IMG/VR virus record: IMGVR_UViG_3300037264_001145
Location: 32,001 to 96,000 of that record
Source of the DNA: a virus
Strand: one strand, 5' to 3'
Length of the DNA: 64,000 nt
Part shown: positions 22,533 through 54,018 of the stretch, one piece after another
Layout: each line of letters opens with the position of its first letter
How positions within the stretch are numbered: position 1 is the first letter of the stretch
Made by a program: the position numbers and the translations under genes
Notes under the pieces: generated by a model
The model's database searches: none
Seen by the model: only the letters and a program-made list of their open reading frames with translations
What the model was told of the DNA's origin: nothing

Positions 22533-22535
22533 CAC

Positions 22536-36423: not shown

Positions 36424-36483
36424 TATTTTTCCTAATTCGTTATAAGTTGACCATTATCGGTTAAAATTGTTACTTTTATCAAT

Positions 36484-40430: not shown

Positions 40431-42185
40431 TCAAATTAATTTTCGAAGATCTGTAATAATTATTGATCCATTCTGTTTATGTCCAAAAATCATACAAACT
40501 AATGTGTCTTTACAAAGTCCATGAATTTTCTCATAAGTGTCTGGAAAAACTACCGCATGATCAATACTGTACGAAGAATCAGATATTGTAAGAAAACACA
40601 TTGGCGCACCAGGATTTTTCCCCTTCTTTGTCTTGGTGTGTTTTACGGAATCTATTACAGCACAAACCGAAAAACTTTCGCCGTTCAAAGCCTTAATTAA
40701 ATCTAAACAATTGTGTGAAGCAGCACTATCATCTGCGTCGTCAGAAGGAGAACAACTTAAAGAAATACCAAGGAAATATTTTTCTGCTGTTGATTTACCA
40801 AGATTCGTGTCTATTTCATCTTTTGCTAATTGATTCAATTTACCTTCGATGACTTTTAATCTTTTCGGCCCGACGCATGATTTGGAGGAGGATTCGTCAT
40901 AACCATTTTCTTTTAATTTGTTGATAATATCAAGCTTGGTCATTCCAGAAAAATCAAATGTTTCCCCTAGAATATTTTTAGACCATCCTATAATATCATC
41001 TTTTTTCATAGACGATAGAGACTTGCCTGGCATTTTTGACGCTTGTTCAACCATTTCGGTTAGAACATCTCTCATAGTTTTGTCGTCGCCATCGAACAAC
41101 TTATCAAAAAACCAATCTCTCTCCTTGTCTGTCAAGCCCCTAATTTCTTTATTTTTACCATCCTTGTCCCTGACAGACGTGCCAAATAGAATTTCTAGTT
41201 CTTTTACCATTTGCGATCTTTCCATTTGGTAACAGTCACAGGCACCGGATTTTATTAAAGCAATCCCAACGCTTCTATGGATAAGAGGTAACGATTTTAA
41301 AAACTCGTTCCACGTAGATAAAGATTCCTTGCTTTGTTCTACGATTTTAGATATCGCAGATTGACCAACCCCCCTTATATTTGAAAGACCAAATTTTATA
41401 CCGCTGTCTATCATTTGGAAGTGGACATTACGAACCCTAATATCGGGCGGAAATACATCTATCCCAAACAATCTTGCGTCCTGTACTAGCTTATAGACCT
41501 CTTCTTTGGGATCGGATTTGTAATTAGAGAATGTTAAATAACTAGTAAAAAATTCGTTTGGAAAGTGTGTTTTTATCCAAGCCGTTGTATAACTAAGCAT
41601 CCCATAACTTATGGCGTGGGATTTATTAAAAGAATATCTTTGACTTTTTTCAATCCATCCAAAAATTTGTTTTGCTGTATCTGTTGATACCAATCCTTTT
41701 TTAAGACACCCATCTATGAATTTGATTTTTAATTTTGCCATTAGCTCTGGTTTTTTCTTACCCATGGCTTTTCTTAGTTCGTCTGCGTTCTCTAACGAGA
41801 ATCCCGCAACTTCTGTTGCTATTTTGATGGCTTGTTCCTGATAGACCAAACAACCGTAAGTGTCGCCCAAAATATCTTTGAGACGTGGGTGCAAATAATT
41901 GGGTTGTTTTCTACCAAATTTTATATCTACGTATTCTTCAGATTGTCCACTTTCTAAACAACCCGGCCTCACCAATGCGGTCAGCGCAGCTAATTCCTGA
42001 ATATTTGATGGCTTGACTTTTCTAGCCCATTCTTGTCCAAGTCTAGTTTCCAGTTGAAAAACACCCGTAGTAAAACCAGAGGATATTAGTGCCCAAACCG
42101 CAGCGCAATCTAATGATATATTATTTGAATCGAATTTGCCTTTTTCGACTTGGCAATCACAAGAAGAAAATTTAATCGTGTCCAT
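40431..42185 (-). CDS. dnaE: DNA polymerase III alpha, C-terminal half (fingers, HhH, OB)
   Basis: TTGVFQLE, ALVRPG, LVYQEQ, LRKAMGKKK, YSFNKSHA, IKFGLSNIRGVG, C-terminal OB fold. Confidence 0.93.
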   Translation of the reverse strand: MDTIKFSSCDCQVEKGKFDSNNISLDCAAVWALISSGFTTGVFQLETRLGQEWARKVKPSNIQELAALTALVRPGCLESGQSEEYVDIKFGRKQPNYLHPRLKDILGDTYGCLVYQEQAIKIATEVAGFSLENADELRKAMGKKKPELMAKLKIKFIDGCLKKGLVSTDTAKQIFGWIEKSQRYSFNKSHAISYGMLSYTTAWIKTHFPNEFFTSYLTFSNYKSDPKEEVYKLVQDARLFGIDVFPPDIRVRNVHFQMIDSGIKFGLSNIRGVGQSAISKIVEQSKESLSTWNEFLKSLPLIHRSVGIALIKSGACDCYQMERSQMVKELEILFGTSVRDKDGKNKEIRGLTDKERDWFFDKLFDGDDKTMRDVLTEMVEQASKMPGKSLSSMKKDDIIGWSKNILGETFDFSGMTKLDIINKLKENGYDESSSKSCVGPKRLKVIEGKLNQLAKDEIDTNLGKSTAEKYFLGISLSCSPSDDADDSAASHNCLDLIKALNGESFSVCAVIDSVKHTKTKKGKNPGAPMCFLTISDSSYSIDHAVVFPDTYEKIHGLCKDTLVCMIFGHKQNGSIIITDLRKLI

Positions 42186-42217: not shown

Positions 42218-42418
42218 TTAGCCGTCGTACATTCCAAGCAATCTGAATCCGCCTCGTCGGTCCCTAACGTAATCTGTGCCAGGACAACCTAGAGGATAAT
42301 AGGTTTTACTAACGCCACAGTTTTTTATACATTTTATTGTGATTCTATCTGTACAAGATTTATCGTGATCTATTACAAAAATACTGCCACAAGCGCATCT
42401 ATATTTATGTTTTTTCAT
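42218..42418 (-). CDS. Small Cys-rich (zinc-ribbon) protein
   Basis: CACG...C...C...C pattern; coupled to the upstream gene. Confidence 0.5.
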   Translation of the reverse strand: MKKHKYRCACGSIFVIDHDKSCTDRITIKCIKNCGVSKTYYPLGCPGTDYVRDRRGGFRLLGMYDG

Positions 42419-43406
42419 TTTTATCTCTTATCGACCCTAAAAGTCTTAAAATATCAAAACTCCCATCCGAAGATACTGGCACTATCTCTTTTATTCTATC
42501 GGGAAAATGATCCCAATAAACGATACTTTTACCACTAACATCTTCTTTCCATGGTGTTGTTAATTTAATCGCGTCCGTTAAATAATTTACCAATAATGAA
42601 AATGAACCTTGGCCAGATACAAATATGTCGGATGCGACAAGATGATAAAATGTTGAAAATACATCTTCGTCTATGTGTAATTTTATTTGTCGTTTGTCGG
42701 GAAGACGGTGCGATGATAAAACTCGCTTTTCTTTCTCTAACATATCCCATACATATATGTGGAATGTAATGTCTTGTAGCTCTTTCATGTTGCTCAAATT
42801 TTCTATTATTTTGAAATAATGATCAAGGCCCATCCATCTTCTATATCCATTTGCTTCTGTGACATCGCCTCTTCGGATGTGAATTCCAATATTTGTTGTG
42901 TCTTTGTCGAAATAACACTTAAAATTTTTGACTTGTTTGGAGTTATTGTATTTTCGTTTTAGGTCGTTGTTTTCATAAATATCCCAGTCTATATCAATAA
43001 ATTGTCCATCTGCCTGGCTACTTACTCTAAATAGAACATCGAGATCTTGGTTAAGCCCAGGATCTTGTATTAACTTCGCAAATTTTATATCGTCCCATGT
43101 AGTTTTTCCTTTCCACAACCAAGGAAGTTCTATCTCTTTACACCCCTTGGGAACATCACTTGTCGCCAGTTCGCCTTCGTGAAAGTTTAAAAAATCATTC
43201 CACGCTTTCACTGGCGTTGTTATTTGATAGAAGTTTGTTCCTTTTCTGTCAAACGTTCCATCTGTTTCTCCCTGAAATGGCTGATAAACGAATTTTAGAT
43301 TATATTTTTTAGCTAAAGTATATGGCACTAAAAAATTGCTAAATTGATGGCCTATTCCTGCTGCTCCACCATTATTAGCCTTCGGGTTAGATACTATGTA
43401 TTTCAT
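42405..43406 (-). CDS. GT11-like (alpha-1,2-fucosyltransferase-like) glycosyltransferase
   Basis: GIGHQFSNF near the N-terminus, IGIHIRRGD nucleotide-sugar motif, SDIFV...GSFS. Confidence 0.7.
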   Translation of the reverse strand: MKYIVSNPKANNGGAAGIGHQFSNFLVPYTLAKKYNLKFVYQPFQGETDGTFDRKGTNFYQITTPVKAWNDFLNFHEGELATSDVPKGCKEIELPWLWKGKTTWDDIKFAKLIQDPGLNQDLDVLFRVSSQADGQFIDIDWDIYENNDLKRKYNNSKQVKNFKCYFDKDTTNIGIHIRRGDVTEANGYRRWMGLDHYFKIIENLSNMKELQDITFHIYVWDMLEKEKRVLSSHRLPDKRQIKLHIDEDVFSTFYHLVASDIFVSGQGSFSLLVNYLTDAIKLTTPWKEDVSGKSIVYWDHFPDRIKEIVPVSSDGSFDILRLLGSIRDKNEKT

Positions 43407-44089
43407 TGTGGTTTAATCCTTTCAAATAAAACATTACATGTATTAGTGCGAAGCTTATTGAAACCTGGCAACAATTTTACCAGATCTCTTTCGTAAACTC
43501 CATCTTCCCACATATTCCCGGTACATTCTGTATATAAGTATTTTGTTATTTCTAGAGTTTCTTTTGCCCCATCAAGGAATTTGCGTTCTGCGCCATTAAC
43601 GTCTGCCCATATTAAATCTATGTTTTTTATTCCTTCTTGTTTTATAAAAGTGTCCAATCTTCTACCAAAAACACTAACTCCTTTTCCAAAAGGAATATCT
43701 GGATGTGCCCTCAAATGTTCTTTTGGTTTATTTAAAGATCCAGAGCCGCTCCAGTCTGTTATTCCCTCCTTAATCCAATGTGGAACCCCATGGCTTTCGT
43801 AAAAAATAGTTGGTCCATCAACATCTGATATTGCTTCTTCTATCAACTTATATCTATCTCCGCAGCCCCATAATGTAGACTGGTTTTCTGACAACTCCTT
43901 GATCTTTTTTATATTTCTTGGGTCTGGTTCAAAGCTAAATACCTTGGACTTTGGAAAAACACTAAGAAAATTTCTTGTGTCCTTTCCGTCATAAGCCCCT
44001 ATTTCTATAATCAACGGGTTATCTTTGTTAATTAACCCGCCTATATATCTAATTATGTCTAGATTCATATTATGGTCTACGCTTGTCAC
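43403..44089 (-). CDS. FkbM-family methyltransferase
   Basis: IIEIGAYDG...FSFEPDPRN...RLDTF...IDLIWADVNGAE..FL.GA..TL...YLYTE. Confidence 0.92.
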   Translation of the reverse strand: MTSVDHNMNLDIIRYIGGLINKDNPLIIEIGAYDGKDTRNFLSVFPKSKVFSFEPDPRNIKKIKELSENQSTLWGCGDRYKLIEEAISDVDGPTIFYESHGVPHWIKEGITDWSGSGSLNKPKEHLRAHPDIPFGKGVSVFGRRLDTFIKQEGIKNIDLIWADVNGAERKFLDGAKETLEITKYLYTECTGNMWEDGVYERDLVKLLPGFNKLRTNTCNVLFERIKPQ

Positions 44090-44622
44090 TTTTCACACTC
44101 CGTGTTTAAGCTTATCAGTGTCCCGTTTTCAAAATCCATTTTTGGAATATAGGCGCGAGAACAATCGTCATGTTGTGAATGCTCCGTGTTTCTCCAATCC
44201 CACAACCTAATATTTTTGAATCCTATTTTTTCTAACAAATTTTTTAAAGAAACAAAATCGTAGCATGTTTTATGATATATTGTTCCGTCGCCCATTTGCA
44301 TTTTTCCATAAAGCGGCCCCAAGAAATTATCTAACGAGAACATCCTTGAAAAATATAAGCGTACCATTTGTTCAAAATCTGGAACAGCTAAACGAAGAGT
44401 TCCTCCTTGTTTTAAAACCCTAAACCATTCCTCTAACACAAGCACGACTTCCGCTCTGTCGAAATACTCAAGAACATGAGAAGCATAAATTATATCAGCA
44501 GAATTATCTCCAAAAGGTAACTTTGTGACATCGTGAGAATGTAGGTATGGGAAATCTCCTCCGTCTATGCTTGTCCAGTCTGATCCAAAATCTCTTTTCC
44601 CACACCCCAAATGAAGTTTCAC
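44086..44622 (-). CDS. Class I SAM-dependent methyltransferase
   Basis: KLHLGCG, LPFGDNSADIIYASHVLEY, EWFRVLKQGGTLRLAVPD. Confidence 0.9.
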   Translation of the reverse strand: MKLHLGCGKRDFGSDWTSIDGGDFPYLHSHDVTKLPFGDNSADIIYASHVLEYFDRAEVVLVLEEWFRVLKQGGTLRLAVPDFEQMVRLYFSRMFSLDNFLGPLYGKMQMGDGTIYHKTCYDFVSLKNLLEKIGFKNIRLWDWRNTEHSQHDDCSRAYIPKMDFENGTLISLNTECEK

Positions 44623-45038
44623 TATATGAACTCCTTGTCTTCTGTTTGGCCGTGATACGGCCCCGTTTTGTATTCGTACACAACCGTATCGTCATCTAAC
44701 GACATATAGTTATGACCGCCCTCTAGTGTGATAGAGCAATCCAAAGAATGCAATACTATGTCATCCCTCAAAATCTTATTGTCGATATCGTACAGGGTAA
44801 CTTTTACCCTTCCTCTTAAGACAACCCACGACTCCTGTGCAATCTTGGTTTCATTAGAATTTTTCCATTTATGTTTGTGTGGTTTAAAAGTTTGAAGTTC
44901 ACGAAGTCTGATTGTTGCCATCTGTATAAAATTATGACAAGGCACAACATCTTCTCTTCCTTCTTGAATATCAAGAAACCTATTTATTATATGTAAAAGC
45001 TTTCCTGGTATAACTTTTGAATATATGTATTCTGCCAT
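44622..45038 (-). CDS. Cupin-fold protein (WbuC-like)
   Basis: PHKH...QESWVVLRG...GGHNY...YEYKTGPY. Confidence 0.75.
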   Translation of the reverse strand: MAEYIYSKVIPGKLLHIINRFLDIQEGREDVVPCHNFIQMATIRLRELQTFKPHKHKWKNSNETKIAQESWVVLRGRVKVTLYDIDNKILRDDIVLHSLDCSITLEGGHNYMSLDDDTVVYEYKTGPYHGQTEDKEFI

Positions 45039-45045
45039 AATTTAT

Positions 45046-46074
45046 TTACTTTACTCTAATGGCCCCTGTCCACTTACTGCTCGATTGTATGCCTGATTTT
45101 CCGTAGTAACCAAGCCAGTATTCAACCATCTCATCCAATAATGTTTCAAACGTATATTTTGGTTTCCATCCAAGAATAGTCCTTACTTTTGTAGAATCTC
45201 CTCTTAGAAAGTTTAATTCTTCTGGTCGTAGAAGTCTTGGATCTTGAACAACAAACTTTCTATAGTCCATACCAAGTTTACCGAAAACATAATCGCAAAG
45301 TTCTCTAACAGAATGGGCTTCGCCAGTAGCAACGGTAAAATCATCTGGTTCTTTGTGGCTTAGAATCATTTGCATCGCTCTTACATAATCATAACTGTGT
45401 CCCCAGTCTCTACTTGAATCCATATTTCCAAGCGTCAAAGTTTTTGTTAACCCAAGACTTATTTCTACCGCCCCCATGACAACTTTAGAAGTTACGAAAT
45501 TACTTCCTCTGCGTGGGGATTCGTGGTTGTGAAGTATTCCATTAGAACAGAATAAGCCAAAGGCTCGGCGATAATATCTTACCATATTAAAACTAAAAAG
45601 TTTAGAGCATCCATAGACACTCACCGGGTCTTTTGGTGTCGTCTCTCTTTGAAATTTATCTTCGTCAAAATTATTTCCGAAAATCTCAGAGCTACTTGCT
45701 TGATAGAATTTAGCGCTTGGAGCAAACTTACGAAAAGCTTCTAGCATATTGGCTACGCCCAAAGCATTAATTTGTACTGTATAGATTGGTATATCCGCAC
45801 TTATTCTTACGTGAGACATAGCACCCAAATTATAGATTTCGTCTGGTTGTGATTCTTTTATGACTTTTTCTATGGAAGACCCGTCAGACAAATCTCCATA
45901 ATAGGTATTTAACCTTTTAGATAAATGACATATTCTACTGTCCTGATTTTCTGCTACACTATGTCTGCGCAACATTCCATGAACATCATAGCCCAAATCC
46001 AATAAATGTTCTGCTAAATAAGAACCGTCTTGTCCACTTATACCAGTAATAAGTGCAACTCTTTTTTTGCTCAT
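45046..46074 (-). CDS. gmd: GDP-mannose 4,6-dehydratase
   Basis: ALITGISGQDGSYLAEHLL, PDEIYNLGAMSHV, YQASSSEIFG, YGCSK, HESPRRG.NFVT, RDWGH. Confidence 0.96.
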   Translation of the reverse strand: MSKKRVALITGISGQDGSYLAEHLLDLGYDVHGMLRRHSVAENQDSRICHLSKRLNTYYGDLSDGSSIEKVIKESQPDEIYNLGAMSHVRISADIPIYTVQINALGVANMLEAFRKFAPSAKFYQASSSEIFGNNFDEDKFQRETTPKDPVSVYGCSKLFSFNMVRYYRRAFGLFCSNGILHNHESPRRGSNFVTSKVVMGAVEISLGLTKTLTLGNMDSSRDWGHSYDYVRAMQMILSHKEPDDFTVATGEAHSVRELCDYVFGKLGMDYRKFVVQDPRLLRPEELNFLRGDSTKVRTILGWKPKYTFETLLDEMVEYWLGYYGKSGIQSSSKWTGAIRVK

Positions 46075-47144
46075 TTTACACCTTTCGTGTCTGTATAAAC
46101 CCTTTTTATTATCTTACATATTCTTCGAATTTGCCTACTCGTCAAATCTAAGCTCGACGGTAAATATACTAGTTCTTCGGATATTTCTTTTGCGCCTGGA
46201 AATTTAGCTCTTGTTTTATATACTGGGTTGTCCGAAATACATTTATAGTATTTTGTTGCTTGAATATTTTCTGATTTTAATGCTTCTATTATTTCGTTGG
46301 CAAAATGGGTTCTGTAGACCACCATCCACAAACTTTCTTTGTCTATTGTATTCGGAGAAAATCTGTAAGGTCTAATCCCGTTTATGTAATAGTTATTGAA
46401 AACTTGCCATCGTTTTTCCAGTAGGACTTTAATATCCCTTAATTGACTTAGAACATAACTTGCTTGAATATCACTGTATCTAAAATTGACGCCAATATGC
46501 TTGTGTAGACGATCTTTTCTCCATTGATCCCCATGGTCCCTGATCTGTCCTAATCTTTTGGCTACCTTGTCATCGTCCGTCACCACAGCCCCGCCCTGAC
46601 CCCCTGTAATCAATTTAGGGACACTAAAGGAGAACACCCCTACATTTCCTGTCCTGCCCGCATACGGCATCCCAATTGACTGGCATGAATCTTCTATTAT
46701 TGGTATGTTATGTGTACTACAGAATTTTTTAACAGCCCCAATATCATCTCCGTAATATGCGTTGTGATTAACGAATATTACACAACTGATGTTTTTATTA
46801 AATTTCAATTTATCTACATCTATACAAAGCGTGTATGGATTTATGTCTACAAGCTTTACTTTATATCCCATGAATCTGGCCGCATTTGCTCCCGCCAAGA
46901 AGGTGTAGGCGGGGAATATAATTGTAGACCCCCTTGGGAGTTTAAGGGCTTCAATAGCCATGATTAGCGCAACTGTTCCGCTCGTGGTTGTAAAGCAATA
47001 TTTTGAACCAGTTAATTTCTTGATTTCTTCTTCCAACAAAAGACATTCTGAACCCGGACCCAAATTGCCTTTGCGAAGAGTTTTAAATACAGCCCATGCA
47101 TCTTTGAATCGACATAATGGACTAAATTGAGATATTTTTTTCAT
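46071..47144 (-). CDS. DegT/DnrJ/EryC1/StrS PLP-dependent sugar aminotransferase (perosamine synthase-like)
   Basis: TSGTVAL, IEDSCQSIG, FSFSVPKLITGGQGGAVVT (catalytic Lys), G.NFR, YLPSS; adjacent to gmd. Confidence 0.88.
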   Translation of the reverse strand: MKKISQFSPLCRFKDAWAVFKTLRKGNLGPGSECLLLEEEIKKLTGSKYCFTTTSGTVALIMAIEALKLPRGSTIIFPAYTFLAGANAARFMGYKVKLVDINPYTLCIDVDKLKFNKNISCVIFVNHNAYYGDDIGAVKKFCSTHNIPIIEDSCQSIGMPYAGRTGNVGVFSFSVPKLITGGQGGAVVTDDDKVAKRLGQIRDHGDQWRKDRLHKHIGVNFRYSDIQASYVLSQLRDIKVLLEKRWQVFNNYYINGIRPYRFSPNTIDKESLWMVVYRTHFANEIIEALKSENIQATKYYKCISDNPVYKTRAKFPGAKEISEELVYLPSSLDLTSRQIRRICKIIKRVYTDTKGVK

Positions 47145-47959
47145 ACTAAAACTTTTTCATTTAAACTATTATACAATTCTATTAGTTTGTTATTTGCACA
47201 ATCTTCTGGACTGAAATGCATCAACTTCTTGTCTGCAAAATTTTTGTCTATTCTATGTCCTACGAAATCTGACAATGTTTGAACACCAATCCCATTTGCT
47301 AAATTTCCACAATTAACAAAAAACATATCTAGGTTTGAATAGTGGTGCAAGATGTATGTATATGTATTAAACCATAATTTTTCGAGGAAATCTTTATTTG
47401 CAACAGTTGCTTGTAAATATTCCGCATTTTTAATTATGTGAGATATGCTTTGCAGAAATTCTGACGGATGCCTAAAGACACAAATAAATTTACAGTTTTG
47501 TAAATAAGGAAGCCAAACAGGTAGGGTATATGAGAATCGCGGGTCTTTGAATAGAAATGGTTGTACGGAAATTAGTTTGAGTATTCTTTCTTGCACGCTT
47601 GCATTTACATACGCGGGATCAATGTTTTTATGACGAGGATTGCGGCGAGAATCTTTGTCAAATAGAAAGCATTCATTAAGTTTTTTAGATTCTGTAATCA
47701 CTGTGTCGGTCTCTAAAGTAGCAAGCCATCCTTGTGGTGAGTTTACTTTTGTTCTTATCACATCTACTTTTGGACACGACCATAGAATATCGTCATTCAA
47801 GCCATTTACTAATGGTGTTTCAAAATATCCTTTTTCATTAAATTTATCTGCGAGGTTCCCTGCCCCCCCGATGTTATAGCTTTGTCCAGAAGTAATTGCT
47901 CCGGCCACAAGGCTAGTTCCACTTCTTCCGCATCCAAGAATTATTATATTCTTAGCCAT
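47141..47959 (-). CDS. Sulfotransferase-family protein
   Basis: PAPS-binding IILGCGRSGTSLV, GYFE, FKDPR, CVFRHP. Confidence 0.8.
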   Translation of the reverse strand: MAKNIIILGCGRSGTSLVAGAITSGQSYNIGGAGNLADKFNEKGYFETPLVNGLNDDILWSCPKVDVIRTKVNSPQGWLATLETDTVITESKKLNECFLFDKDSRRNPRHKNIDPAYVNASVQERILKLISVQPFLFKDPRFSYTLPVWLPYLQNCKFICVFRHPSEFLQSISHIIKNAEYLQATVANKDFLEKLWFNTYTYILHHYSNLDMFFVNCGNLANGIGVQTLSDFVGHRIDKNFADKKLMHFSPEDCANNKLIELYNSLNEKVLV

Positions 47960-48143
47960 TATTTTCTCGTTCTTGGATTTCGTGTTCCATACTAGCTACT
48001 TGCCATCCAATTCTCCAGTCCATGTAATCGTTTTCTTCTACCCCTTTGTCGTATGGATTGACAATTAAACCGTCACTGTTGGTAAAAGCGTCTTTGCCTA
48101 ATCTGAAAGCTTTTTCGTTGAATAAATTTGGCGAATTAACCAT
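47952..48143 (-). CDS. Small protein with a ribosome-modulation-factor-like motif
   Basis: AFRLGKDAF...NPY...W.IGW; start moved to the ATG overlapping the upstream stop. Confidence 0.4.
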   Translation of the reverse strand: MVNSPNLFNEKAFRLGKDAFTNSDGLIVNPYDKGVEENDYMDWRIGWQVASMEHEIQERENNG

Positions 48144-48969
48144 TTTTCTTTTCCCATTCATCATAAAGGTAGTTGGGATCTCCTTCTCCCCATTCGACCC
48201 CTTCGTTTCTTACTATACCTTCTCCACGTTTTTTATTATACAAAATTGTATTATTTCTAAATCTTTTTTTATCTTCCGTATCGGTGTAAACTTGAGGCTT
48301 TGGGTGCCAGAGATGAATTGGACGACAATTTTGATCAAAATATTGTGCTAATCCTGATTTCATTAATCTGTTGTGCATATCAGCATCAACATACCCATAT
48401 GTTTTGAAATCTTCGTCATAACCACCAAGTTTCCTAAAAGCTTCCATTGGGGCACAGTGACCAAAATGCCAGCATACGTAGCTTCTTTCGTCTATTTGGT
48501 GTTCATGAGTTCTTTTTTGCAATTCTTCTGCGTTAATTTTACCACTAAAATATAAGTCCGTATCCTTTTTTTCACAAGAGTACGAGAGTCCGCCGCAACG
48601 ATATAAAACTTCAGGATGATCAAAACATCCTTTTATGAAATCTCCAGTATAAAAAAGCTCTGGATCTTTTTGGGCAAGCATTTTTGATTGTCCGTATTTG
48701 ATTACAATATTTCTCATAAAAGCGTCTCCGCGCTCCCACGGTGGAGATCTATCGAAAGTAAAATAATGTAGATTTTTTGCTTCTAGGTCTGAAAAATCTT
48801 CATGAATACTATCGTTAGCTACAAGGATCATCCATTTATCTGATGGAACAACAGTTTTTATGAGTGAGTCTAATACTCTTCTAATGTAATTTCCACGGCC
48901 AAAATTTGGTACGAGCAAGATTAAATCTCTATTTGTTATAGACCAATCAAAAGTTTTGTGTGTAATCAC
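48136..48969 (-). CDS. GT-A (GT2/GT7C-like) glycosyltransferase, paralogue
   Basis: LVPNFGR, VAND, KDPE, GGYDEDFKTYGYVDADMHNRL, IHLWH. Confidence 0.85.
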   Translation of the reverse strand: MITHKTFDWSITNRDLILLVPNFGRGNYIRRVLDSLIKTVVPSDKWMILVANDSIHEDFSDLEAKNLHYFTFDRSPPWERGDAFMRNIVIKYGQSKMLAQKDPELFYTGDFIKGCFDHPEVLYRCGGLSYSCEKKDTDLYFSGKINAEELQKRTHEHQIDERSYVCWHFGHCAPMEAFRKLGGYDEDFKTYGYVDADMHNRLMKSGLAQYFDQNCRPIHLWHPKPQVYTDTEDKKRFRNNTILYNKKRGEGIVRNEGVEWGEGDPNYLYDEWEKKNG

Positions 48970-48970
48970 T

Positions 48971-49738
48971 TTATCCTTCCCCCCAATTAATCTTAAGATT
49001 TCTTACAACGTTTTCGTCTCTTTTTTGAGAATATACGTCTTTCATTCCTTGATGGTTAGTGTTTATAGGTCCATGCCACAAATGAATTGGACTACAACTT
49101 TCGTCATAGAATGGTTTTAGTCCACATTTAAGCAATCTGTCATACATATCATGATCTTCTGGTCCATATGATTTAAAATCTTCATCGTAGCCATTAATTC
49201 TTCTAAAATAATCTATTGGTACGCAATGACCATAATGCCAATAAGTATATGTATTTTTCGGTATTGTAAATTTTATAGATGCCCGGATCAATTCTGCTTC
49301 GTCTATGAACCCGTTAAAAAAACTATGTTTTTGATATTGTTTGGTTACGTATGCCAATCCCCCACATCTGTATAAAACATCTTGGTGATCTAAACAACCT
49401 TTTATAAAATCTCCTGTAAATAAAATTTCAGGATCTTTTTGTGCAAATAGCTTACATTGACAACGTTTTATGGCTATGTTGCGAATAAAAGCACCGTTAC
49501 GTTCGATAAGAGGAGATCTTTCAAACGTAAAATAATGAACATTCTTCCATTGCAAATCTTCTAGTGGTTCGTGGAACCCATCATTGATAACCAAGACTAC
49601 CCACCTATCTCTTGGAACGGATGTTCTAACTAAATTATCTATAGTTCTTTGTATATAGTCCGCTCTTTGAAAGTTCGGTATAAATATAACTAAATCTTTT
49701 TTTGTTACATCCCAATCGAAATTCTTAAAGGTTGTCAT
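48971..49738 (-). CDS. GT-A (GT2/GT7C-like) glycosyltransferase, paralogue
   Basis: FIPNFQR, VINDG, KDPE, NGYDEDFKSYGPEDHDMYDRL, IHLWH. Confidence 0.85.
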   Translation of the reverse strand: MTTFKNFDWDVTKKDLVIFIPNFQRADYIQRTIDNLVRTSVPRDRWVVLVINDGFHEPLEDLQWKNVHYFTFERSPLIERNGAFIRNIAIKRCQCKLFAQKDPEILFTGDFIKGCLDHQDVLYRCGGLAYVTKQYQKHSFFNGFIDEAELIRASIKFTIPKNTYTYWHYGHCVPIDYFRRINGYDEDFKSYGPEDHDMYDRLLKCGLKPFYDESCSPIHLWHGPINTNHQGMKDVYSQKRDENVVRNLKINWGEG

Positions 49739-50712
49739 GTTTTTACCCCCTTAACAACTGTGTTTCCAAGAGGGCCGATATATTTTACTAGATTATGTTT
49801 TGTTAATAGTAGTTGTGCGTACTCATTTGCTCTTTCGGCCTTAACTTTTTCATAAAACTCATTTTTCCCGTCAAGTTTATCATACCCACCACCGCCACAT
49901 GGGTGAAAATGATCTACTGTAACCCTATCACAATGAGCAACTTTTATTTTCTTAAAAGCTCTCAAAAAGAATACGCTATGTTCAACTACTTTAAAATCAT
50001 CATCATATCCACCAAATGCTTGAATCGCTTCTTTTTTACCCATCCAAAAAGATAGAACTATATCGACCACTGGACAACCGAATTCAATTCCTTTATCTCT
50101 TCTCTCAAAGTGAGCTATTCCTCTCGCAAGTTCCGTTTCGTTAAGACACCCAAAGTAATTAGCAAATCCTGTTACATTTCCACCCACCAAGTCTATGTTT
50201 GAATTTTCTAATATATTTAACCATATTTCTAGTTGTGTGTGTGCTGTAAAAATAAAATCGTCGTCTAATGAAACAACATACGGGGTTGTAGCTGCGGCCA
50301 TTGCTCGGTTTTTCCCATAAGAAATTCCGCTGTTATACGGCAACTTAAGAAAAGTAACATTTGGTCTTGTATTTTTAGACGGCACTCTGCTATCGTCAGC
50401 AACAATAATTTTAATTCCTGGATAAAATTTGTCTATGCTTTTAAGGAGCCTCTCTAAACACTTAGGTCTTTCGAAGGCTTTGATCATTATTGTAACATTA
50501 TCAAGCGATCCTTTCATACCATCTCCTTTACAAAATTCTATCGGCGGAGAAATAACAATTTGTATTCCTTCTCGTATTACAGTAGCGGCTGGAAGCGTGG
50601 AAATTTGTTCCAAAACAGAGTCTACCGTAATCGGAACTGGAGTCAAAGCCGGAGCTAATCTTCTTTGTTTCTTTTCTTCTCCAGTTAGTTCGCGCCTTTG
50701 ATCATGCTTCAT
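49735..50712 (-). CDS. GT-A glycosyltransferase resembling the B4GALNT1/2 (GT12) catalytic domain
   Basis: VTIMIKAFERP..LERLL.SI.KFYP.I.IIVADDS...LPYNSG...G.N.A.....T.YVV.LDDDFIFT....LE......LVGG.V. Confidence 0.8.
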   Translation of the reverse strand: MKHDQRRELTGEEKKQRRLAPALTPVPITVDSVLEQISTLPAATVIREGIQIVISPPIEFCKGDGMKGSLDNVTIMIKAFERPKCLERLLKSIDKFYPGIKIIVADDSRVPSKNTRPNVTFLKLPYNSGISYGKNRAMAAATTPYVVSLDDDFIFTAHTQLEIWLNILENSNIDLVGGNVTGFANYFGCLNETELARGIAHFERRDKGIEFGCPVVDIVLSFWMGKKEAIQAFGGYDDDFKVVEHSVFFLRAFKKIKVAHCDRVTVDHFHPCGGGGYDKLDGKNEFYEKVKAERANEYAQLLLTKHNLVKYIGPLGNTVVKGVKT

Positions 50713-50713
50713 A

Positions 50714-51901
50714 TTATTTCCTTAAGAACAAGACCGCAGCCCTTTTTTCGTTACAATAATCGTCTTCTTTTCTCATAACAGAGGAGCATGACAAAAATGG
50801 GGTTAATCGGTGTGCTACGAATCCGCTATCTCTAAACCTTTTAGTAATATGATTTATGTCTGGAAGTTTAAGGCTCTGGTGAGTATCAATGTTACCAAAA
50901 AATACATCTGTTCTGGATTTGAGTGCGTTGGTTCCAATCTTAGTGTCTATTAAAACGGCCTCTTTGCTGGACGCAATAAGTTGGTCGATAAGGAAATCGT
51001 GTTCTTCTATATGATGAAAAATTCCCGCGCAAATTGTAAAATCGAACTTCCTTCCGTAGAAGGTATTTTGCCAAAAGGCAGGATCGAGAATATCACAATT
51101 GATAAATTCATACCTGTCTTCTGGCAAGAACTGATTTGAACTCCAATACAAGAGACCTTGAAGAATGTACTTGTTTCTTCCCTCTAGTGCAGTTAAACTT
51201 TTCGCACCGTATCCCGCATACTTAGAACTCCAATAAGATACGTTGGACCCAATATCTAATATACTCTTGTCTTTAAAATCATATTTATTTACTACTTGAT
51301 TAACTAGTAGATTTTCTCTATATGTATTTCTTGCAGATAATTCTTGTGGAGACCGGGGGGTGCCGACACCTGGGATAACCGTTTCCCCTCCTATTTTTAA
51401 TGGGTAATACCATGGATTAAGCATGTTAATAACATGATTTACATTTTGAACCCTTTTCTTTATTTCGCTAGAAGATACGCCTTTGTAGTAGGGTAGTGTG
51501 ACAATCCTTGTATAATGCGGAATGCTGGATTTAATACTTTCCCTAAGTTCGTCATCGTGAGACTCGCTTTCCACAACAACATCTGGTTTTATGTGTAATA
51601 TGTTTTTGACGGGAGAATATGTGTCTTGGCAAACTACTAAATCCACATATTTTATAGACTCTATTACCCTAACTCTTTCGTCCATCGACATGATTGGAGG
51701 ATTTTTTCTCTCCATTACCGCTTCGTCTGTCAAAACTCCGACAACCAAGATGTCGCCTAAAGCCTTGGCATTTTTTAGATGAAGCACATGTCCGTAGTGA
51801 ATTATATCTCCACAGACATAAGCATAAACTATTATCGGATCGGCTGATTTCTTATGCACGGTGGATTTCCACAGTGCCATCCCTTTACTGGCGTCTTCCA
51901 T
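50714..51901 (-). CDS. Fusion of a cytidylyltransferase (HxGH) and a class I methyltransferase
   Basis: N-terminal GDIIHYGH...VVGVLTDEA...KPDVVV; C-terminal SILDIGSN...ALEGR...FDFTICAGIFHH. The real start may be the Met near 51871. Confidence 0.85.
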   Translation of the reverse strand: MEDASKGMALWKSTVHKKSADPIIVYAYVCGDIIHYGHVLHLKNAKALGDILVVGVLTDEAVMERKNPPIMSMDERVRVIESIKYVDLVVCQDTYSPVKNILHIKPDVVVESESHDDELRESIKSSIPHYTRIVTLPYYKGVSSSEIKKRVQNVNHVINMLNPWYYPLKIGGETVIPGVGTPRSPQELSARNTYRENLLVNQVVNKYDFKDKSILDIGSNVSYWSSKYAGYGAKSLTALEGRNKYILQGLLYWSSNQFLPEDRYEFINCDILDPAFWQNTFYGRKFDFTICAGIFHHIEEHDFLIDQLIASSKEAVLIDTKIGTNALKSRTDVFFGNIDTHQSLKLPDINHITKRFRDSGFVAHRLTPFLSCSSVMRKEDDYCNEKRAAVLFLRK

Positions 51902-52446
51902 TCTCCGTACTGCTCCTTAAGATATTTTTCTATTTGTTTTACCACATTAACCTTCACACCCTTAAATTCCACTTCTTCAAATTCGTCGAAAACATCAGGA
52001 GAATAACAATAATACTTCTGCCCAGCATACCAAACTGAACACCATGTACAATTGACCCCTCTGTAATGAATAAACCATTCAATTTTAACCCTATTCCTGA
52101 TAAAAGAAATCTCCATACCGATGTTTCTATTACCAAGTACGTGAGCAAGTTGAAATCCTCTTGCCTTCATTTCATCTATAAGTTCCTGTTGTTTTAAATC
52201 GGTAAGATCAGAAATACTTGCTCCAAGATCAATATCGTCATCGTGGGCAATAAAATCTTTTTCTCTATAATAGCCAAGGCACGTACCGCAAGTAAGCCAT
52301 GTGAATAGACCAATTTTATTCGCTACTTCGTAAGCGTCTCTTAAATTATCGGTAGCATCTTTCACAACCTTTGGATCAGAACCAAACAATGGCGCTACCA
52401 TCCCGTTATCCATATCAAATTCCCCTTCCCCATTCACAACCACCAT
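51832..52446 (-). CDS. licD: LicD/fukutin-family phosphotransferase
   Basis: WLTCGTCLGYYRE..FIAHDDDIDLG...EKYL...YG.W..P. Confidence 0.85.
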   Translation of the reverse strand: MVVVNGEGEFDMDNGMVAPLFGSDPKVVKDATDNLRDAYEVANKIGLFTWLTCGTCLGYYREKDFIAHDDDIDLGASISDLTDLKQQELIDEMKARGFQLAHVLGNRNIGMEISFIRNRVKIEWFIHYRGVNCTWCSVWYAGQKYYCYSPDVFDEFEEVEFKGVKVNVVKQIEKYLKEQYGEWKTPVKGWHCGNPPCIRNQPIR

Positions 52447-53200
52447 TCGCTACCACGTCTAGTCTTTGCAAATCTTGTTTATATGTAGATTCATTGTCTA
52501 ATATTGTCTTATGAAATCGTCTCATTATAGGATGACCTATGTGATAAGTAGTTGTTTCTTTATCTATTAACACAGGCGCTCCTGATTTCTTTAGTCTTTC
52601 GAGCATTTGCCAATCCTCATACCCATAACCAGCTCTATACTTTTCATTATACCCGCCCATATCTTTTAATTTTTGTGTTCTTATACAACAACCAGCATGA
52701 AAAGCCTGATTTCTTTTATCGCTTGCTTCCCATTGTCTTAAAATTGGTAATTTGGTTAAATCAATAAATGGATTGTCAATTATTCTTTGTGTATCACACT
52801 CATTTAATTCAACCATTCCTCGCGGTCTGTAAACAACATCGTTAAGACCCAAGATCTTAGAAATCATATCTCCTTCTATAATAATTTCTGGATCTTTTGT
52901 AGCAAGCCATTCGCTTTGACACCGTTTTATTACAAAGTTTCTAATCATACACCCATTACGTTCATCAGCGGGATCTCTCTCGAACGTAAAATATCTTAGA
53001 TTAAAGTCCCGCTCTAAATCTTCCATTGGTTCATGCGGGCCATCGTTGACAATTAAAAACATCCATTTGTCTTCTGGAACAGAAGTCTTGAATCTCTTGA
53101 GGGTTGGGATTAAAAGATGTTTTCTTTTGAAATTGGGCACATAAAACACCAAATCCCTATTGGTACAAGACCAGTCAAAATCAGTTGCCGATTTGAACAT
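52415..53200 (-). CDS. GT-A (GT2/GT7C-like) glycosyltransferase, paralogue
   Basis: FDWS.T.RDL, VPNFKR, VNDG, KDPE, GGYNE.Y..GYGYEDWQM.ERL. Confidence 0.85.
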   Translation of the reverse strand: MFKSATDFDWSCTNRDLVFYVPNFKRKHLLIPTLKRFKTSVPEDKWMFLIVNDGPHEPMEDLERDFNLRYFTFERDPADERNGCMIRNFVIKRCQSEWLATKDPEIIIEGDMISKILGLNDVVYRPRGMVELNECDTQRIIDNPFIDLTKLPILRQWEASDKRNQAFHAGCCIRTQKLKDMGGYNEKYRAGYGYEDWQMLERLKKSGAPVLIDKETTTYHIGHPIMRRFHKTILDNESTYKQDLQRLDVVANGGCEWGRGI

Positions 53201-53552
53201 ACCTCGTCGTTTTCCTTACCTCTACCTTCCTTGTCAAGCTTTCTTTCTTTTCAAAGCAGCCGTCGCAGATAGCTCCTTGAATCCTATAATCCCTATGACT
53301 CATCATATCCTCTAATTGATCAAACTTGCTACCATAACCAAAATGTATTTCTATTGTTCCACCTTCTAAATTGGGTAACAAGCCTTCGTCGTCGTTCCCT
53401 GGTCCATTTGGATCGAACGGTATTTCTTTCTCGCAAACTATGCATCGCCATTCCCGCGAAGTAGTTGGTCTATTTCTACGCACAGGCTCGTCCTGATGAG
53501 GACAACAAACATTTGCTTCACACCCACAAGAATTGTATGTTTTTTTATCCAT
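53181..53552 (-). CDS. Cys-rich hypothetical protein
   Basis: CIVCEK and ICDGC pairs; coupled ORF. Confidence 0.55.
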   Translation of the reverse strand: MDKKTYNSCGCEANVCCPHQDEPVRRNRPTTSREWRCIVCEKEIPFDPNGPGNDDEGLLPNLEGGTIEIHFGYGSKFDQLEDMMSHRDYRIQGAICDGCFEKKESLTRKVEVRKTTRYVQIGN

Positions 53553-54018
53553 ATATTATATCCTCAAACCCTTCCGATAAATCTGGTTTCTCCAATTGTT
53601 TATTTAATTCACAAATTACACTGTCGGGAACTTTCTTTTCGTTTCTTCGAAAGTTGTGTTGCAAACAAGAACCCAAGCTTTTGTCAAAATATAAAGCTAT
53701 GATTTTAAATCCAAAAGCTTTACCAAATTCAATCCAATAAGTCCTACTTTCTTTATTTATAAGCCACGCACTCTCATCAAGTATTATACTAAGATTTGGA
53801 TTTTTGGATAAAGCAAAAATTATATGGCCGACAATTTGTTTTAAATAATCTTCTTTATCTTTATTATATTGTTCTTTGTAGAACGCTAGTCTGAAATCAT
53901 CTACCGAAATAACAACAATATTTTTTTCTCTTTCGGCTATTTTTCTTGACGCCGTTGTTTTACCAGATGCTGGCGGGGCTACGGTTAAATACAAGTACCT
54001 AGTCATCAACCTCAACAC
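53545..54018 (-). CDS. P-loop kinase (polynucleotide kinase/AAA_33-like)
   Basis: VAPPASGKTT Walker A, IS.DDFR, IILD, CL..N.RR...VP..VI. Confidence 0.8.
   Translation of the reverse strand: MLRLMTRYLYLTVAPPASGKTTASRKIAEREKNIVVISVDDFRLAFYKEQYNKDKEDYLKQIVGHIIFALSKNPNLSIILDESAWLINKESRTYWIEFGKAFGFKIIALYFDKSLGSCLQHNFRRNEKKVPDSVICELNKQLEKPDLSEGFEDIIYG

Follow-up and report, generated by a model that had tools for sequence, protein, structure and literature searches.

A soluble glycan-building cassette between the split DnaE halves of an uncultured phage, with virion proteins as its possible target

The window analysed here, a stretch of 64,000 nucleotides from an uncultured phage lineage of ~170 kb, carries a real, intact and soluble glycan-building gene set under purifying selection. 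This cassette lies in the replication module, apart from the structural genes, and forms a gapless minus-strand array flanked on either side by one half of a split DnaE (Table 1). Its enzymes are predicted from the genes to be able to build a methylated, sulfated and phosphate-capped sugar chain, and we tentatively regard glycosylation of the phage's own virion proteins as the best reading of the system.

Table 1. Positions of the cassette genes, their borders and the downstream GT-B genes in the window.
Feature	Coordinates	Strand	Evidence and remarks
DnaE N-half (PHP, pol III alpha)	53999..56356	-	PF02811, PF07733; upstream border of cassette
AAA_33 P-loop kinase	53545..54018	-	PF13671, E 3e-11; flanking gene, not a constant cassette member
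123-aa Cys-rich ORF	53181..53552	-	no Pfam match; probably mobile
GT2/Glyco_transf_7C paralogue a	52415..53200	-	PF02709, PF10111; inverting GT-A, beta-4-Gal/GalNAc-transferase-like
LicD-family phospho-alcohol (phosphocholine/ribitol-phosphate type) transferase	51832..52446	-	PF04991, E 1.3e-15
CTP:phospho-alcohol cytidylyltransferase fused to probable SAM methyltransferase	50714..51901	-	PF01467, 57 bits; TagD, RfaE-II models
B4GALNT1-related GT2 (GT12-like beta-1,4-GalNAc-transferase)	49735..50712	-	PF00535, 48 bits
GT2/Glyco_transf_7C paralogue b	48971..49738	-	PF02709, 36 bits
GT2/Glyco_transf_7C paralogue c	48136..48969	-	PF02709
70-aa ORF	47952..48164	-	conserved in close relatives
PAPS-dependent sulfotransferase (probable)	47141..47959	-	PF13469 (Sulfotransfer_3), E 1.8e-5, 25.6 bits (gathering score 27)
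DegT/DnrJ/EryC1 PLP sugar aminotransferase	46071..47144	-	PF01041, 220 bits
Gmd (GDP-mannose 4,6-dehydratase)	45046..46074	-	PF16363, 361 bits
WbuC-like cupin	44622..45038	-	TIGR04366, E 6e-10, 39 bits, just below cut-off of 42
Methyltransf_11, class I SAM methyltransferase	44086..44622	-	PF08241, 43 bits
FkbM-family methyltransferase	43403..44089	-	PF05050, 52 bits; TIGR01444, 62 bits
GT11-like, GDP-sugar-dependent GT, fucosyltransferase-superfamily fold	42405..43406	-	homologues, motif, model
66-aa Cys-rich ORF	42218..42418	-	occupies apparent gap ahead of DnaE-C
DnaE C-half (finger, HHH)	40431..42185	-	PF17657, PF14579; downstream border of cassette
GT-B1 (GT4-type GT-B fold)	37656..39362	-	PF00534; inserted Cys4 ribbon and C-terminal helical domain
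GT-B2, group-1 glycosyltransferase	36484..37656	-	PF00534; phrog_2170
GT-B3, group-1 glycosyltransferase	35413..36423	-	PF00534, 60 bits

The cassette holds 13 enzyme genes: Gmd, a DegT aminotransferase, a WbuC-like cupin, FkbM and Methyltransf_11 methyltransferases, a sulfotransferase, a GT11-like glycosyltransferase (GT), a B4GALNT1-like GT, three GT2/7C paralogues, LicD and a cytidylyltransferase-methyltransferase fusion. All the genes named in the original prediction were present at the expected place. The contiguous set is real, and the proposed count of 14 genes is approximate because the 13 enzymes are accompanied by two or three small ORFs. Intergenic gaps from DnaE-N to DnaE-C are all at most 7 nt, the 66-aa ORF included, and every frame is intact and tightly packed, often overlapping its neighbor by a few bases. 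Pfam domains of both parts confirmed the nesting between polymerase halves, with PHP and pol3-alpha in the upstream half and finger and HHH in the downstream half. Orthologues of the N-half occupy the same position in relatives (63-82% identity), and those of the C-half were found in related contigs L002-L004.

The 70-aa ORF has homologues in G002 and L005 (52% identity). G001 has no AAA_33 kinase; a homing-endonuclease-like ORF and a gene of the MazG/PRA-PH type stand at that spot. The 123-aa Cys-rich ORF has no Pfam match, and in G001 the orthologue is found among structural genes, next to a homing-endonuclease-like ORF. Rather than a sugar enzyme, it probably represents a small mobile gene.

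In G001, G002 and G005 the cassette lies in synteny between the DnaE halves; synteny holds across relatives whose DnaE is 57-82% identical, and four other contigs end within the cassette. Every cassette gene has a dN/dS of at most 0.26, with synonymous sites saturated. Of the cassette proteins, the cytidylyltransferase fusion is the best conserved (82% identity to G002, dN/dS 0.09). The cassette of G001 contains neither LicD nor the fusion and has an additional sulfotransferase-like ORF and an additional GT11-like paralogue, together with a TylF-like methyltransferase, as well as MazG-like and nucleoside-deoxyribosyltransferase-like genes in its interior. The pattern across the relatives compared by sequence is that of a conserved core with a variable periphery.

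All five GTs proposed for the cassette were corroborated by Pfam and PDB matches and by homologue and fold searches. GT2/7C paralogue a has the invariant residues of its family and has orthologues at 52-73% identity, and paralogues b and c are 50% identical to each other. The best PDB match of paralogue b is the GalNAc-transferase part of CHSY3 (chondroitin sulfate synthase 3; E 1.5e-5). A word-indexed search with paralogue b returned 33 relatives at E <= 1e-5, all on metagenomic or viral contigs; its cellular relatives are just 22-26% identical over most of the protein, and no cellular relative of the GT2/7C family above ~26% identity over most of its length was found in the genome collection scanned. 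The B4GALNT1-like GT matches human B4GALNT1 (PDB 9h6j, E 1.3e-31) over residues 72-271. The GT11-like protein itself has no Pfam match. It has 1861 representative homologues, and 25 of 70 homologues match PF01531. Its HxRRGD motif is kept, with R178 invariant, and Foldseek matched its AlphaFold model (pLDDT 89) to POFUT1/2, AtFUT1 and FUT8.

Among the sugar-nucleotide enzymes, Gmd has readable glycine-rich nucleotide-binding and YxxxK motifs and scores 350 bits against TIGR01472, under the cut-off of 415. The aminotransferase has a Lys at the usual Schiff-base position; in the PDB it matches sugar aminotransferases best (DegT-family entries, WbpE, perosamine synthetase), and ColD-type dehydratases score lower. 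The WbuC-like cupin is possibly a keto-sugar isomerase or epimerase. The probable PAPS-dependent sulfotransferase scores below the Sulfotransfer_3 gathering threshold and has weak SULT1C matches; both its PAPS-binding motifs are readable (5'-PSB, GxGRSGTS; 3'-PB, RHPxxxxxS), and its dN/dS is 0.19-0.26. LicD matches the NCBIfam Mf1 cholinephosphotransferase model (E 1e-13) and, weakly, FKRP in the PDB. Assignment of the cytidylyltransferase half of the fusion is solid, and that of the methyltransferase half is weak (TIGR04290, E 4e-9; no match in a PDB search).

A functional link of the cassette to the three downstream GT-B genes was supported. GT-B2 and GT-B3 have orthologues in G001, G002 and G003, and the trio is kept even in the distant G003, where other GT genes stand upstream of DnaE-C. 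GT4 enzymes are retaining. GT-B1 has 2254 homologues; the best 120 of these are 43-76% identical to it, and about 48 of them (~40%) carry inteins, located at two conserved sites. The top PDB match of its predicted model (pLDDT 92.6) is the chlorovirus NY-2A GT 3oy2 (14% identity), followed by MshA, GlgM and PimB', and viral members make up 88-100% of the GT-B1-like atlas clusters. GT-B1 behaves like a core gene of the lineage and, with GT-B2 and GT-B3, likewise of GT4 type, makes up the conserved core.

The system would be an exporter-free glycan assembly line active in the cytoplasm of the infected cell. Gmd would convert host GDP-mannose to GDP-4-keto-6-deoxymannose, which may be isomerised by the cupin and would be aminated by the DegT enzyme to a GDP-amino-dideoxyhexose of the perosamine or mycosamine type, for transfer by the GT11-like enzyme. 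The B4GALNT1-like GT and the three GT2/7C enzymes would add beta-linked Gal/GalNAc-type residues from host UDP-sugars. The chain could then be methylated by the FkbM, Methyltransf_11 and TylF-like methyltransferases, the last encoded elsewhere in the genome, outside the cassette, and sulfated from host PAPS. Finally, the fusion would make a CDP-activated phospho-alcohol that LicD would attach as a phosphodiester cap. The three GT-B enzymes would form the invariant core, probably catalysing the initiating steps, and the cassette the more variable outer part. The phage would decorate its own virion proteins before the cell lyses, repeat-rich fibres being the leading candidates.

The evidence that favors virion proteins as the target is indirect. 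The GT families are virus-specific, and the nearest solved structure to GT-B1 is from a chlorovirus. Furthermore, the nearest cellular relatives of the GT2/7C enzymes adjoin collagen-like exosporium glycoproteins; the relative in Desulfosporosinus hippei adjoins Rml-type sugar genes and two collagen-repeat/BclA_C exosporium-type proteins. A collagen-like ORF lies within 8 kb in 7 of 29 full-length bacterial GT2/7C loci and in 0 of 15 partial-match loci, the 7 all being from related taxa, phylogenetically clustered and 22-26% identical; the low identity and the clustering weaken this link. In a fibre protein of 1106 aa encoded in the window (4218-7538), a unit of ~14 residues is repeated at least 40 times, and every unit exposes a D-[ST]-K-[TN]-Q-[SD] loop that is a possible acceptor site. 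Other observations also count against virion proteins: the putative capsid and tail-tube proteins have no Ser/Thr-rich tail, the [ST]-G-x-[ST] motif is not enriched in the phage under study, and the cassette is located in the replication module.

Less likely, in our view, is a role at the inner membrane face, where the enzymes would act on host lipid-linked intermediates and so remodel O-antigen, capsule, teichoic acid or another glycoconjugate of the envelope, with the host carrier, flippase and ligase exporting the product. The surface of the infected cell would then be altered, for instance to block superinfection or to keep progeny from adsorbing to debris. The original prediction had noted the lack of TM segments and drawn from it a cytoplasmic acceptor. 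The observation was borne out by a Kyte-Doolittle scan, in which no cassette protein had a 19-residue window >=1.6, and no ORF with at least 4 hydrophobic segments was found among 665 ORFs of four related records. The conclusion does not follow, because the GTs that build O-antigen, capsule and teichoic acid are mostly soluble or peripheral and use lipid-linked acceptors, the host providing the carrier and exporter. LicD and TagD-like cytidylyltransferases are classic enzymes of teichoic-acid and LOS decoration, the content differs between relatives as in serotype loci, and similar multi-family clusters of large lytic cyanophages have been interpreted as host-surface modifiers (PMC7824862, PMC12801897). 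However, the system is a conserved lineage core and not a sporadic accessory, GT-B1 is conserved as much as the replication proteins and is intein-invaded, and the virus-specific GT families lack close relatives in cells that might point to exchange with a glycan locus of the host. In addition, at least 16 enzymes would need to suit the specificity of the host flippase and ligase. A partial annotation not aimed at lysogeny genes showed no integrase or other lysogeny gene, as would suit a large phage that carries replication genes of its own.

It is unlikely that the glycan is built on another cytoplasmic target, either a host protein modified for takeover or anti-defence or a soluble small-molecule glycoside. 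Every enzyme is soluble, and conflict-system-linked GT4 families exist as Pfam family PF20706. However, at least 8 GTs with methyl, sulfate and phosphodiester groups are typical of surface-exposed glycans, not of regulatory single sugars, and no conflict-system partner gene was seen nearby.

The original prediction had offered a virion coat or a DNA glycan; the former stands as the best reading and the latter was not supported. A complex glycan on DNA, which would protect it from restriction as in T4, RB69/DLP3 or the methyltransferase-plus-TET clusters, is improbable because no known base-hydroxyl-making enzyme was found in six related records. All known routes require a base hydroxyl, made by a thymidylate-synthase homologue or by a C5-methyltransferase with a TET/JBP dioxygenase. 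Neither these nor other 2OG oxygenases co-occur with the cassette in the five or six related records searched, which are 49-82% complete and judged to overlap over most of the genome map: PF00303 was not found in the phage itself (G000) or in G001-G005, nor were PF00145, PF12851 (without a positive control), PF13640 and PF13532 in G000, G001, G002, G003 and G005. The phage encodes ThyX, dCMP deaminase and a Dam-type methylase, which point to ordinary bases, and sulfation, a phospho-alcohol cap and at least 8 GTs go far beyond any known DNA glycan. For DNA speak the location in the replication module next to a dNMP kinase, the MazG-like and nucleoside-deoxyribosyltransferase-like genes of G001, the Cys4 ribbon of GT-B1, which could bind nucleic acid, and the derivation of phage DNA GTs from LPS/teichoic-acid enzymes (10.1101/2023.12.21.572611). 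Lastly, homing-endonuclease genes scattered among the cassette genes of relatives would suit a decaying or unexpressed passenger, a possibility raised at the outset that the intact, tightly packed frames, the low dN/dS at saturated synonymous sites and the synteny have already brought close to refutation.

Several known systems resemble the cassette in part. The T4 alpha- and beta-GTs glycosylate phage DNA. Arabinosyl-5hoC in RB69/DLP3 (PMC13326640) and clusters of methyltransferase, 5mYOX and GT genes (10.1101/2023.12.21.572611) likewise rely on soluble phage GTs and sugar-nucleotide genes in the replication region, whereas our gene set is far more elaborate and comes without a base-hydroxyl-making enzyme in the lineage records searched.

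In spore-forming Firmicutes, soluble GTs and deoxy-sugar genes decorate the repeat-rich trimeric BclA-type exosporium fibre in the mother cell. Such proteins adjoin the nearest cellular GT2/7C relatives in some genomes, but GT identity is low and the fibres of our phage are not collagen-like. Chloroviruses and giant viruses glycosylate autonomously (PBCV-1/NY-2A GTs, Mimivirus fibril glycan clusters), with their own nucleotide-sugar synthesis, including amino-dideoxy sugars and methylation, and many soluble GTs producing virion glycans without host export. GT-B1 finds its best solved structural match there; however, these are eukaryotic viruses, the gene sets are not orthologous and the similarity is at fold level only.

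To describe the cassette as an undescribed system went too far. Large lytic phages are already known to carry clusters of sugar and GT genes from several families, among them the cyanophage 'LPS' or cell-wall synthesis and modification clusters, such as the 15-gene cluster of P-SSM2 and those of S-SCSM1 and S-SCSM2R (22 genes with 13 GTs) (PMC7824862, PMC12801897), and the cassette is similar to them in kind. Both belong to large lytic phages and have many paralogous GTs of several families, including GT11 and GT2, nucleotide-sugar dehydratases, cupins and a TagD-type cytidylyltransferase; content varies between relatives, and the acceptor is putative in either. In contrast, ours is a conserved lineage core between split DnaE halves, with a sulfotransferase, LicD and a B4GALNT1-like GT added, and no cyanophage record matched its GT11-like, GT2/7C or sulfotransferase genes at BLAST level.

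Mycobacteriophages Che8, Corndog and Myrna O-glycosylate their virions (Freeman et al. 2023, as cited in PMC12619734 and PMC12801897). As represented there, these systems have few genes and place simple glycans on the C-termini of capsid and tail-tube subunits, whereas ours has at least 16 enzymes and no Ser/Thr-rich C-terminal tails; no sequence relation between them was found. According to the same sources, soluble phage GTs, together with methyltransferases, act in the cytoplasm to glycosylate structural proteins of the phage itself, and our analysis suggests that such a mechanism is the most likely one here.

The IMG/VR virus record is 119,615 bp long and 71% complete by CheckV, and its bases 32001-96000 make up the window. 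The phage encodes a tape-measure protein of 1655 aa and its own replication and metabolism set (DnaE, DnaB, primase, RecA, RNR, ThyX, dCMP deaminase, sigma factor and SSB). From one DnaE half to the other, adjacent genes are at most 7 nt apart, and many neighbours overlap by a few bases. G+C content in the region is 34-38% and does not shift at the cassette. Counts from promoter and terminator consensus scans equalled the shuffled expectation. No close relative was found among GenBank phages, and megablast with the cassette gave no match. Small Cys-rich ORFs sit at both cassette edges. The larger one and the AAA_33 kinase gene were rejected as cassette members, since relatives lack them or carry them elsewhere; in the related uncultured viral record G001, the larger ORF lies among structural genes and adjoins a homing-endonuclease-like ORF.

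Coordinates and order of the features discussed (window positions)
Feature	Position	Strand	Remark
DnaE-N	53999-56356	-	first of the minus-strand order
AAA_33 kinase		-	
123-aa Cys-rich ORF	53181-53552	-	
GT2/7C-a		-	
LicD		-	
Cytidylyltransferase-methyltransferase fusion		-	
B4GALNT1-like GT2	49735-50712	-	
GT2/7C-b		-	
GT2/7C-c		-	
70-aa ORF		-	
Sulfotransferase	47141-47959	-	
DegT aminotransferase		-	
Gmd	45046-46074	-	
WbuC-like cupin		-	
Methyltransf_11		-	
FkbM		-	
GT11-like GT	42405-43406	-	
66-aa Cys-rich ORF	42218-42418	-	
DnaE-C	40431-42185	-	last of the order
SSB			after DnaE-C
Sigma factor			after DnaE-C
Three group-1 GT-B genes	35413-39362		after DnaE-C
GT-B1 Cys ribbon	38470-38540		residues about 277-298
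Putative tail-tube protein	14446-15534		
Putative capsid protein	10041-11087		

A crude Kyte-Doolittle hydropathy scan, used in place of a dedicated membrane predictor, found no 19-residue window of 1.6 or more in the cassette proteins and no ORF with four or more hydrophobic segments among the 665 ORFs of four records (the present one, G000, and its relatives G001 to G003). As far as such a scan can tell, this bears out the original observation that the cluster lacks transmembrane segments and membrane genes. The membrane components of Gtr-type or O-antigen serotype conversion (GtrA flippase, GtrB, polytopic GtrC, Wzy and Oac) were not found in the same scan of the four records; the lack of ORFs with so many hydrophobic segments therefore indicates that flippases, polymerases, phosphoglycosyl transferases and Gtr-type proteins are missing from the lineage. 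It does not follow from solubility, as originally argued, that the acceptor is cytoplasmic, because the glycosyltransferases (GTs) of lipid-linked glycans are typically soluble or peripheral themselves.

Several enzymes of the cassette stand out as unusual, namely the B4GALNT1-like GT, the fucosyltransferase-fold GT and the cytidylyltransferase-methyltransferase fusion. The first matches human B4GALNT1 in the PDB at E 1.3e-31, and a search with one GT2/7C paralogue (48971-49738) hit the GalNAc-transferase portion of chondroitin sulfate synthase 3. Gmd scores 361 bits with PF16363 and 350 with TIGR01472, under the equivalog cut-off of 415, and has the glycine-rich nucleotide-binding motif and the YxxxK motif. 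The GT11-like protein has no Pfam match of its own and belongs to a family of 1861 representatives, in which 25 of 70 match GT11 (PF01531), the HxRRGD GDP-binding motif is kept and R178 is invariant. The structure predicted for it (pLDDT 89.4) resembles the fucosyltransferase GT-B fold, with POFUT1/2, AtFUT1 and FUT8 as neighbours at TM about 0.42-0.47. PDB sequence searches with this protein and its 5-sequence profile gave no match, and the tentative assignment came only from the full HMMER search and the fold comparison; its donor is probably a GDP-amino-sugar. The weaker assignments are the sulfotransferase, which scores 25.6 bits against a Pfam gathering score of 27 and finds weak SULT1C matches in the PDB while its 5'-PSB and 3'-PB PAPS motifs are readable, and the methyltransferase half of the fusion, for which a PDB search gave no support.

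Judging from what is known of these families, Gmd would convert GDP-mannose to GDP-4-keto-6-deoxymannose, from which DegT, possibly after isomerisation by the cupin, would produce a GDP-amino-dideoxyhexose; PDB neighbours of DegT do not discriminate between amination at C-3 and C-4. The fucosyltransferase-fold GT would transfer this sugar, the B4GALNT1-like and GT2/7C enzymes would add beta-linked Gal/GalNAc-type residues, and the chain could be finished by methylation, by sulfation from host PAPS and by a phospho-alcohol transferred by LicD.

Eight related viral contigs were retrieved using the DnaE halves and the GT2/7C family as queries. In the related records G001, G002 and G005 the DnaE halves enclose the same genes in unchanged order, the only insertions being HNH/NUMOD4 homing endonucleases and a paralogous family of ORFs of about 216 aa, except that G001 lacks LicD and the cytidylyltransferase fusion. 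Cassette proteins share 37-82% identity, and synonymous sites are saturated. For each cassette gene dN/dS is at most 0.26, comparable with the values for DnaE and the putative capsid protein. The cluster is not in decay. Gene content does differ towards the edges of the cassette: G001 gains a further sulfotransferase-like ORF and a further GT11-like paralogue, besides a TylF-like methyltransferase and genes of MazG-like and deoxyribosyltransferase-like type. A TylF/Methyltransf_24 sugar-O-methyltransferase-like gene is also found in G000, 24 kb from the cassette (genome 109392-109928; L011:14392-14928). Since its G001 relative lies inside the cassette, adjoining DnaE-C, the G000 gene probably belongs to the same glycan system.

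In G003, a more distant relative, three different Glyco_trans_1_2 GT genes stand immediately upstream of DnaE-C (L004:8-2386), an extra GT2 and a methyltransferase occur amid the GT-B genes, and a Gmd and GT pair adjoins probable terminase and portal genes (L030:13100-15489). This different content indicates that the position is a glycan-gene hotspot with replaceable content. Four of the eight related contigs (L004, L005, L033 and L038) end within the cassette, where by a rough estimate about one would do so by chance. This excess suggests population-level variability at the cassette; assemblies may break there through such variation or through variable homing-endonuclease content. Free-standing mobile genes are abundant in the lineage and occur throughout G002 (L020-L026). 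They include HNH_3+NUMOD4 homing endonucleases of about 175 aa and the family of about 216 aa, which has no Pfam match, more than 20 copies in G002 and several copies between cassette genes; example loci are L011:5029-5679, equivalent to window 68029-68679, and L009:7749-8279. In G002, DnaE-C contains an intein (Pfam) and RNR a large insertion. G001 (22028-23350) and G003 (87609-89744) contain collagen-like ORFs, built of GXX repeats and hydrophobic at their ends, that are absent from G000 and G002. Larger co-directional glycan arrays were seen in other uncultured viral contigs of 35-128 kb (L039-L044, e.g. L043:800-15800). Their sugar-transfer genes encode GT2/7C relatives, a GT10 fucosyltransferase, a GT32-like GT and MptE/CST-I-like (sialyltransferase or Maf-like) proteins, alongside a radical SAM enzyme, a UDP-GlcNAc 2-epimerase, LicD, a cytidylyltransferase and a TylF-like methyltransferase.

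Every relative, even G003, retains the three GT-B genes. GT-B1 (37656-39362) has 2254 homologues, the best 120 of which share 43-76% identity and lie on contigs of up to 165-181 kb; one homologue is labelled marine sediment metagenome, the only clue to a host. About 48 of the best 120 (of 2254, in a set of 5.8 billion proteins) measure 840-980 aa and contain domains of intein or homing-endonuclease type. Alignment and Pfam place these inteins at two insertion sites, one after a conserved KPDIV and the other inside the Glu-containing donor-site motif, both with Cys...His-Asn|Cys boundaries. The first is occupied by a LAGLIDADG intein in G002 (L003:13123-16023) and the second by a Hint/Hom_end intein in G003 (L004:5341-8121). 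Inteins are not known to have been described before in any glycosyltransferase of a phage.

An invariant CxxC...CxxC ribbon lies within the C-terminal Rossmann domain of GT-B1, its residues C277, C280, C295 and C298 being invariant in 48 sequences; it could bind the acceptor or nucleic acid. The protein also has a C-terminal helical domain, at about residues 440-560. Its model (pLDDT 92.6) best matches a glycosyltransferase of chlorovirus NY-2A (3oy2, E 3e-17), followed by the GT4 enzymes MshA, GlgM, PimB', BshA and PglA. Among predicted viral structures it resembles RfaG GTs of uncultured Caudovirales and GTs of giant and archaeal viruses, and the Atlas clusters resembling it are 88-100% viral.

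As to what the glycan is attached to, all of which we infer, we tentatively favour virion proteins. Analogous cyanophage clusters are read in the literature as modifiers of the host surface (PMC7824862, PMC12801897), but an envelope acceptor seems rather unlikely here, as the system behaves as a lineage core and its GT families are virus-specific, without close cellular relatives. These features, the chlorovirus GT as structural neighbour of GT-B1, the setting of the nearest cellular GT2/7C relatives and a repeat fibre together lead us to prefer virion proteins, against which stand the location of the glycan genes in the replication module, the lack of Ser/Thr-rich tails on the putative capsid and tail-tube proteins and the lack of [ST]-G-x-[ST] enrichment. 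Phage DNA, the other acceptor originally suggested, is very improbable, since published DNA-glycosylation routes (including 10.1101/2023.12.21.572611) begin at a base hydroxyl, for which they need either a thymidylate-synthase homologue that yields 5hm- or 5ho-pyrimidine nucleotides or a C5-methyltransferase paired with a TET/JBP (5mYOX) dioxygenase, and no such entry enzyme or other 2OG oxygenase was found in the five or six records searched, whereas the phage has ThyX (PF02511), dCMP deaminase and a Dam-type methylase. PF00303 was not found in G000 and G001-G005 (49-82% complete), a search in which 10 of 14 control genomes were positive, and PF00145, PF12851, PF13640 and PF13532 were not found in five records, the PF12851 search being without a positive control. 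Gene-by-gene comparison of G000-G003 suggests that the searched records together cover most of the genome map.

Where exosporium fibres are glycosylated in the cytoplasm, glycosyltransferase and deoxy-sugar genes are known to lie beside those of collagen-like proteins. In Desulfosporosinus hippei, a GT2/7C-homologous domain ends a 1095-aa multi-GT protein whose gene adjoins Rml-type genes and those of two collagen-repeat/BclA_C proteins. A genome-contig scan for cellular relatives found a collagen-like ORF within 8 kb at 7 of 29 full-length bacterial loci versus 0 of 15 partial-match loci. In the phage's 1106-aa fibre (4218-7538) a unit of about 14 residues recurs at least 40 times, its core being hydrophobic (LDLFIxG) and its D-[ST]-K-[TN]-Q-[SD] loop exposed, and it is plausible, nothing more, that these repeats serve as a periodic acceptor. 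Neither the putative capsid nor the putative tail-tube protein, roles assigned from gene order and conservation only and with no PHROGs match for either, bears a Ser/Thr-rich C-terminal extension. The [ST]-G-x-[ST] motif showed no per-protein enrichment here; its twofold higher density in structural proteins, uncorrected for amino-acid composition, was set aside as no signal.

A broader picture, which we regard as possible but doubtful, is that a widespread phage lineage of about 170 kb coats its own particle, most likely the long repeat fibres, with a complex heteroglycan built wholly in the cytoplasm and carrying amino-dideoxyhexose, O/N-methyl groups, sulfate and a phosphocholine-type cap. 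In this picture the core GT4 enzymes would rank with replication proteins in being indispensable, and that would account for the inteins that invade them, while the DnaE-flanked cassette would diversify the outer sugars. To our knowledge, no bacterial virus has been described with a sulfated or phospho-alcohol-capped glycan, so the case would be a first. With the glycan on the virion, particle glycosylation would extend from a few simple-sugar actinophage cases to a large, widespread uncultured lineage, whose elaborate coat would vary between strains and bear comparison with those of giant viruses, with a bearing on phage-host recognition, stickiness to particles or mucus, evasion of grazers and immunity, and phage-surface engineering. 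Conversely, were the target the host envelope, the cassette would be one more instance of the 'LPS cluster' problem that large lytic phages still pose.

Calling this an undescribed system went too far, as large sugar and GT clusters of big lytic phages have been described, with 15 genes in P-SSM2 and 22 genes, 13 of them for GTs, in S-SCSM2R (PMC7824862, PMC12801897). The cassette resembles these cyanophage LPS/CWSM clusters in that a large lytic phage groups nucleotide-sugar enzymes with GTs from more than one family (PMC7824862, PMC12801897). Homology to the P-SSM2/S-SCSM gene set was not seen: when the GT11-like, GT2/7C, B4GALNT-like and sulfotransferase proteins were compared by tblastn with 50,697 phage records, none hit a cyanophage, and GT-B1 has one weak match (S-EIVl, E 1e-3). 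BLAST-level relatives of the gene set in these records are confined to two huge uncultured phages and Salinibacter phages. Soluble phage GTs without export genes are shared with virion glycosylation of the mycobacteriophage type, where the glycan lies at the C-terminal ends of capsid and tail-tube subunits. What distinguishes the present system from the described clusters is its behaviour as a lineage core, its site between the split DnaE halves, its sulfotransferase, LicD and B4GALNT1-like GT, and a core GT invaded by inteins.
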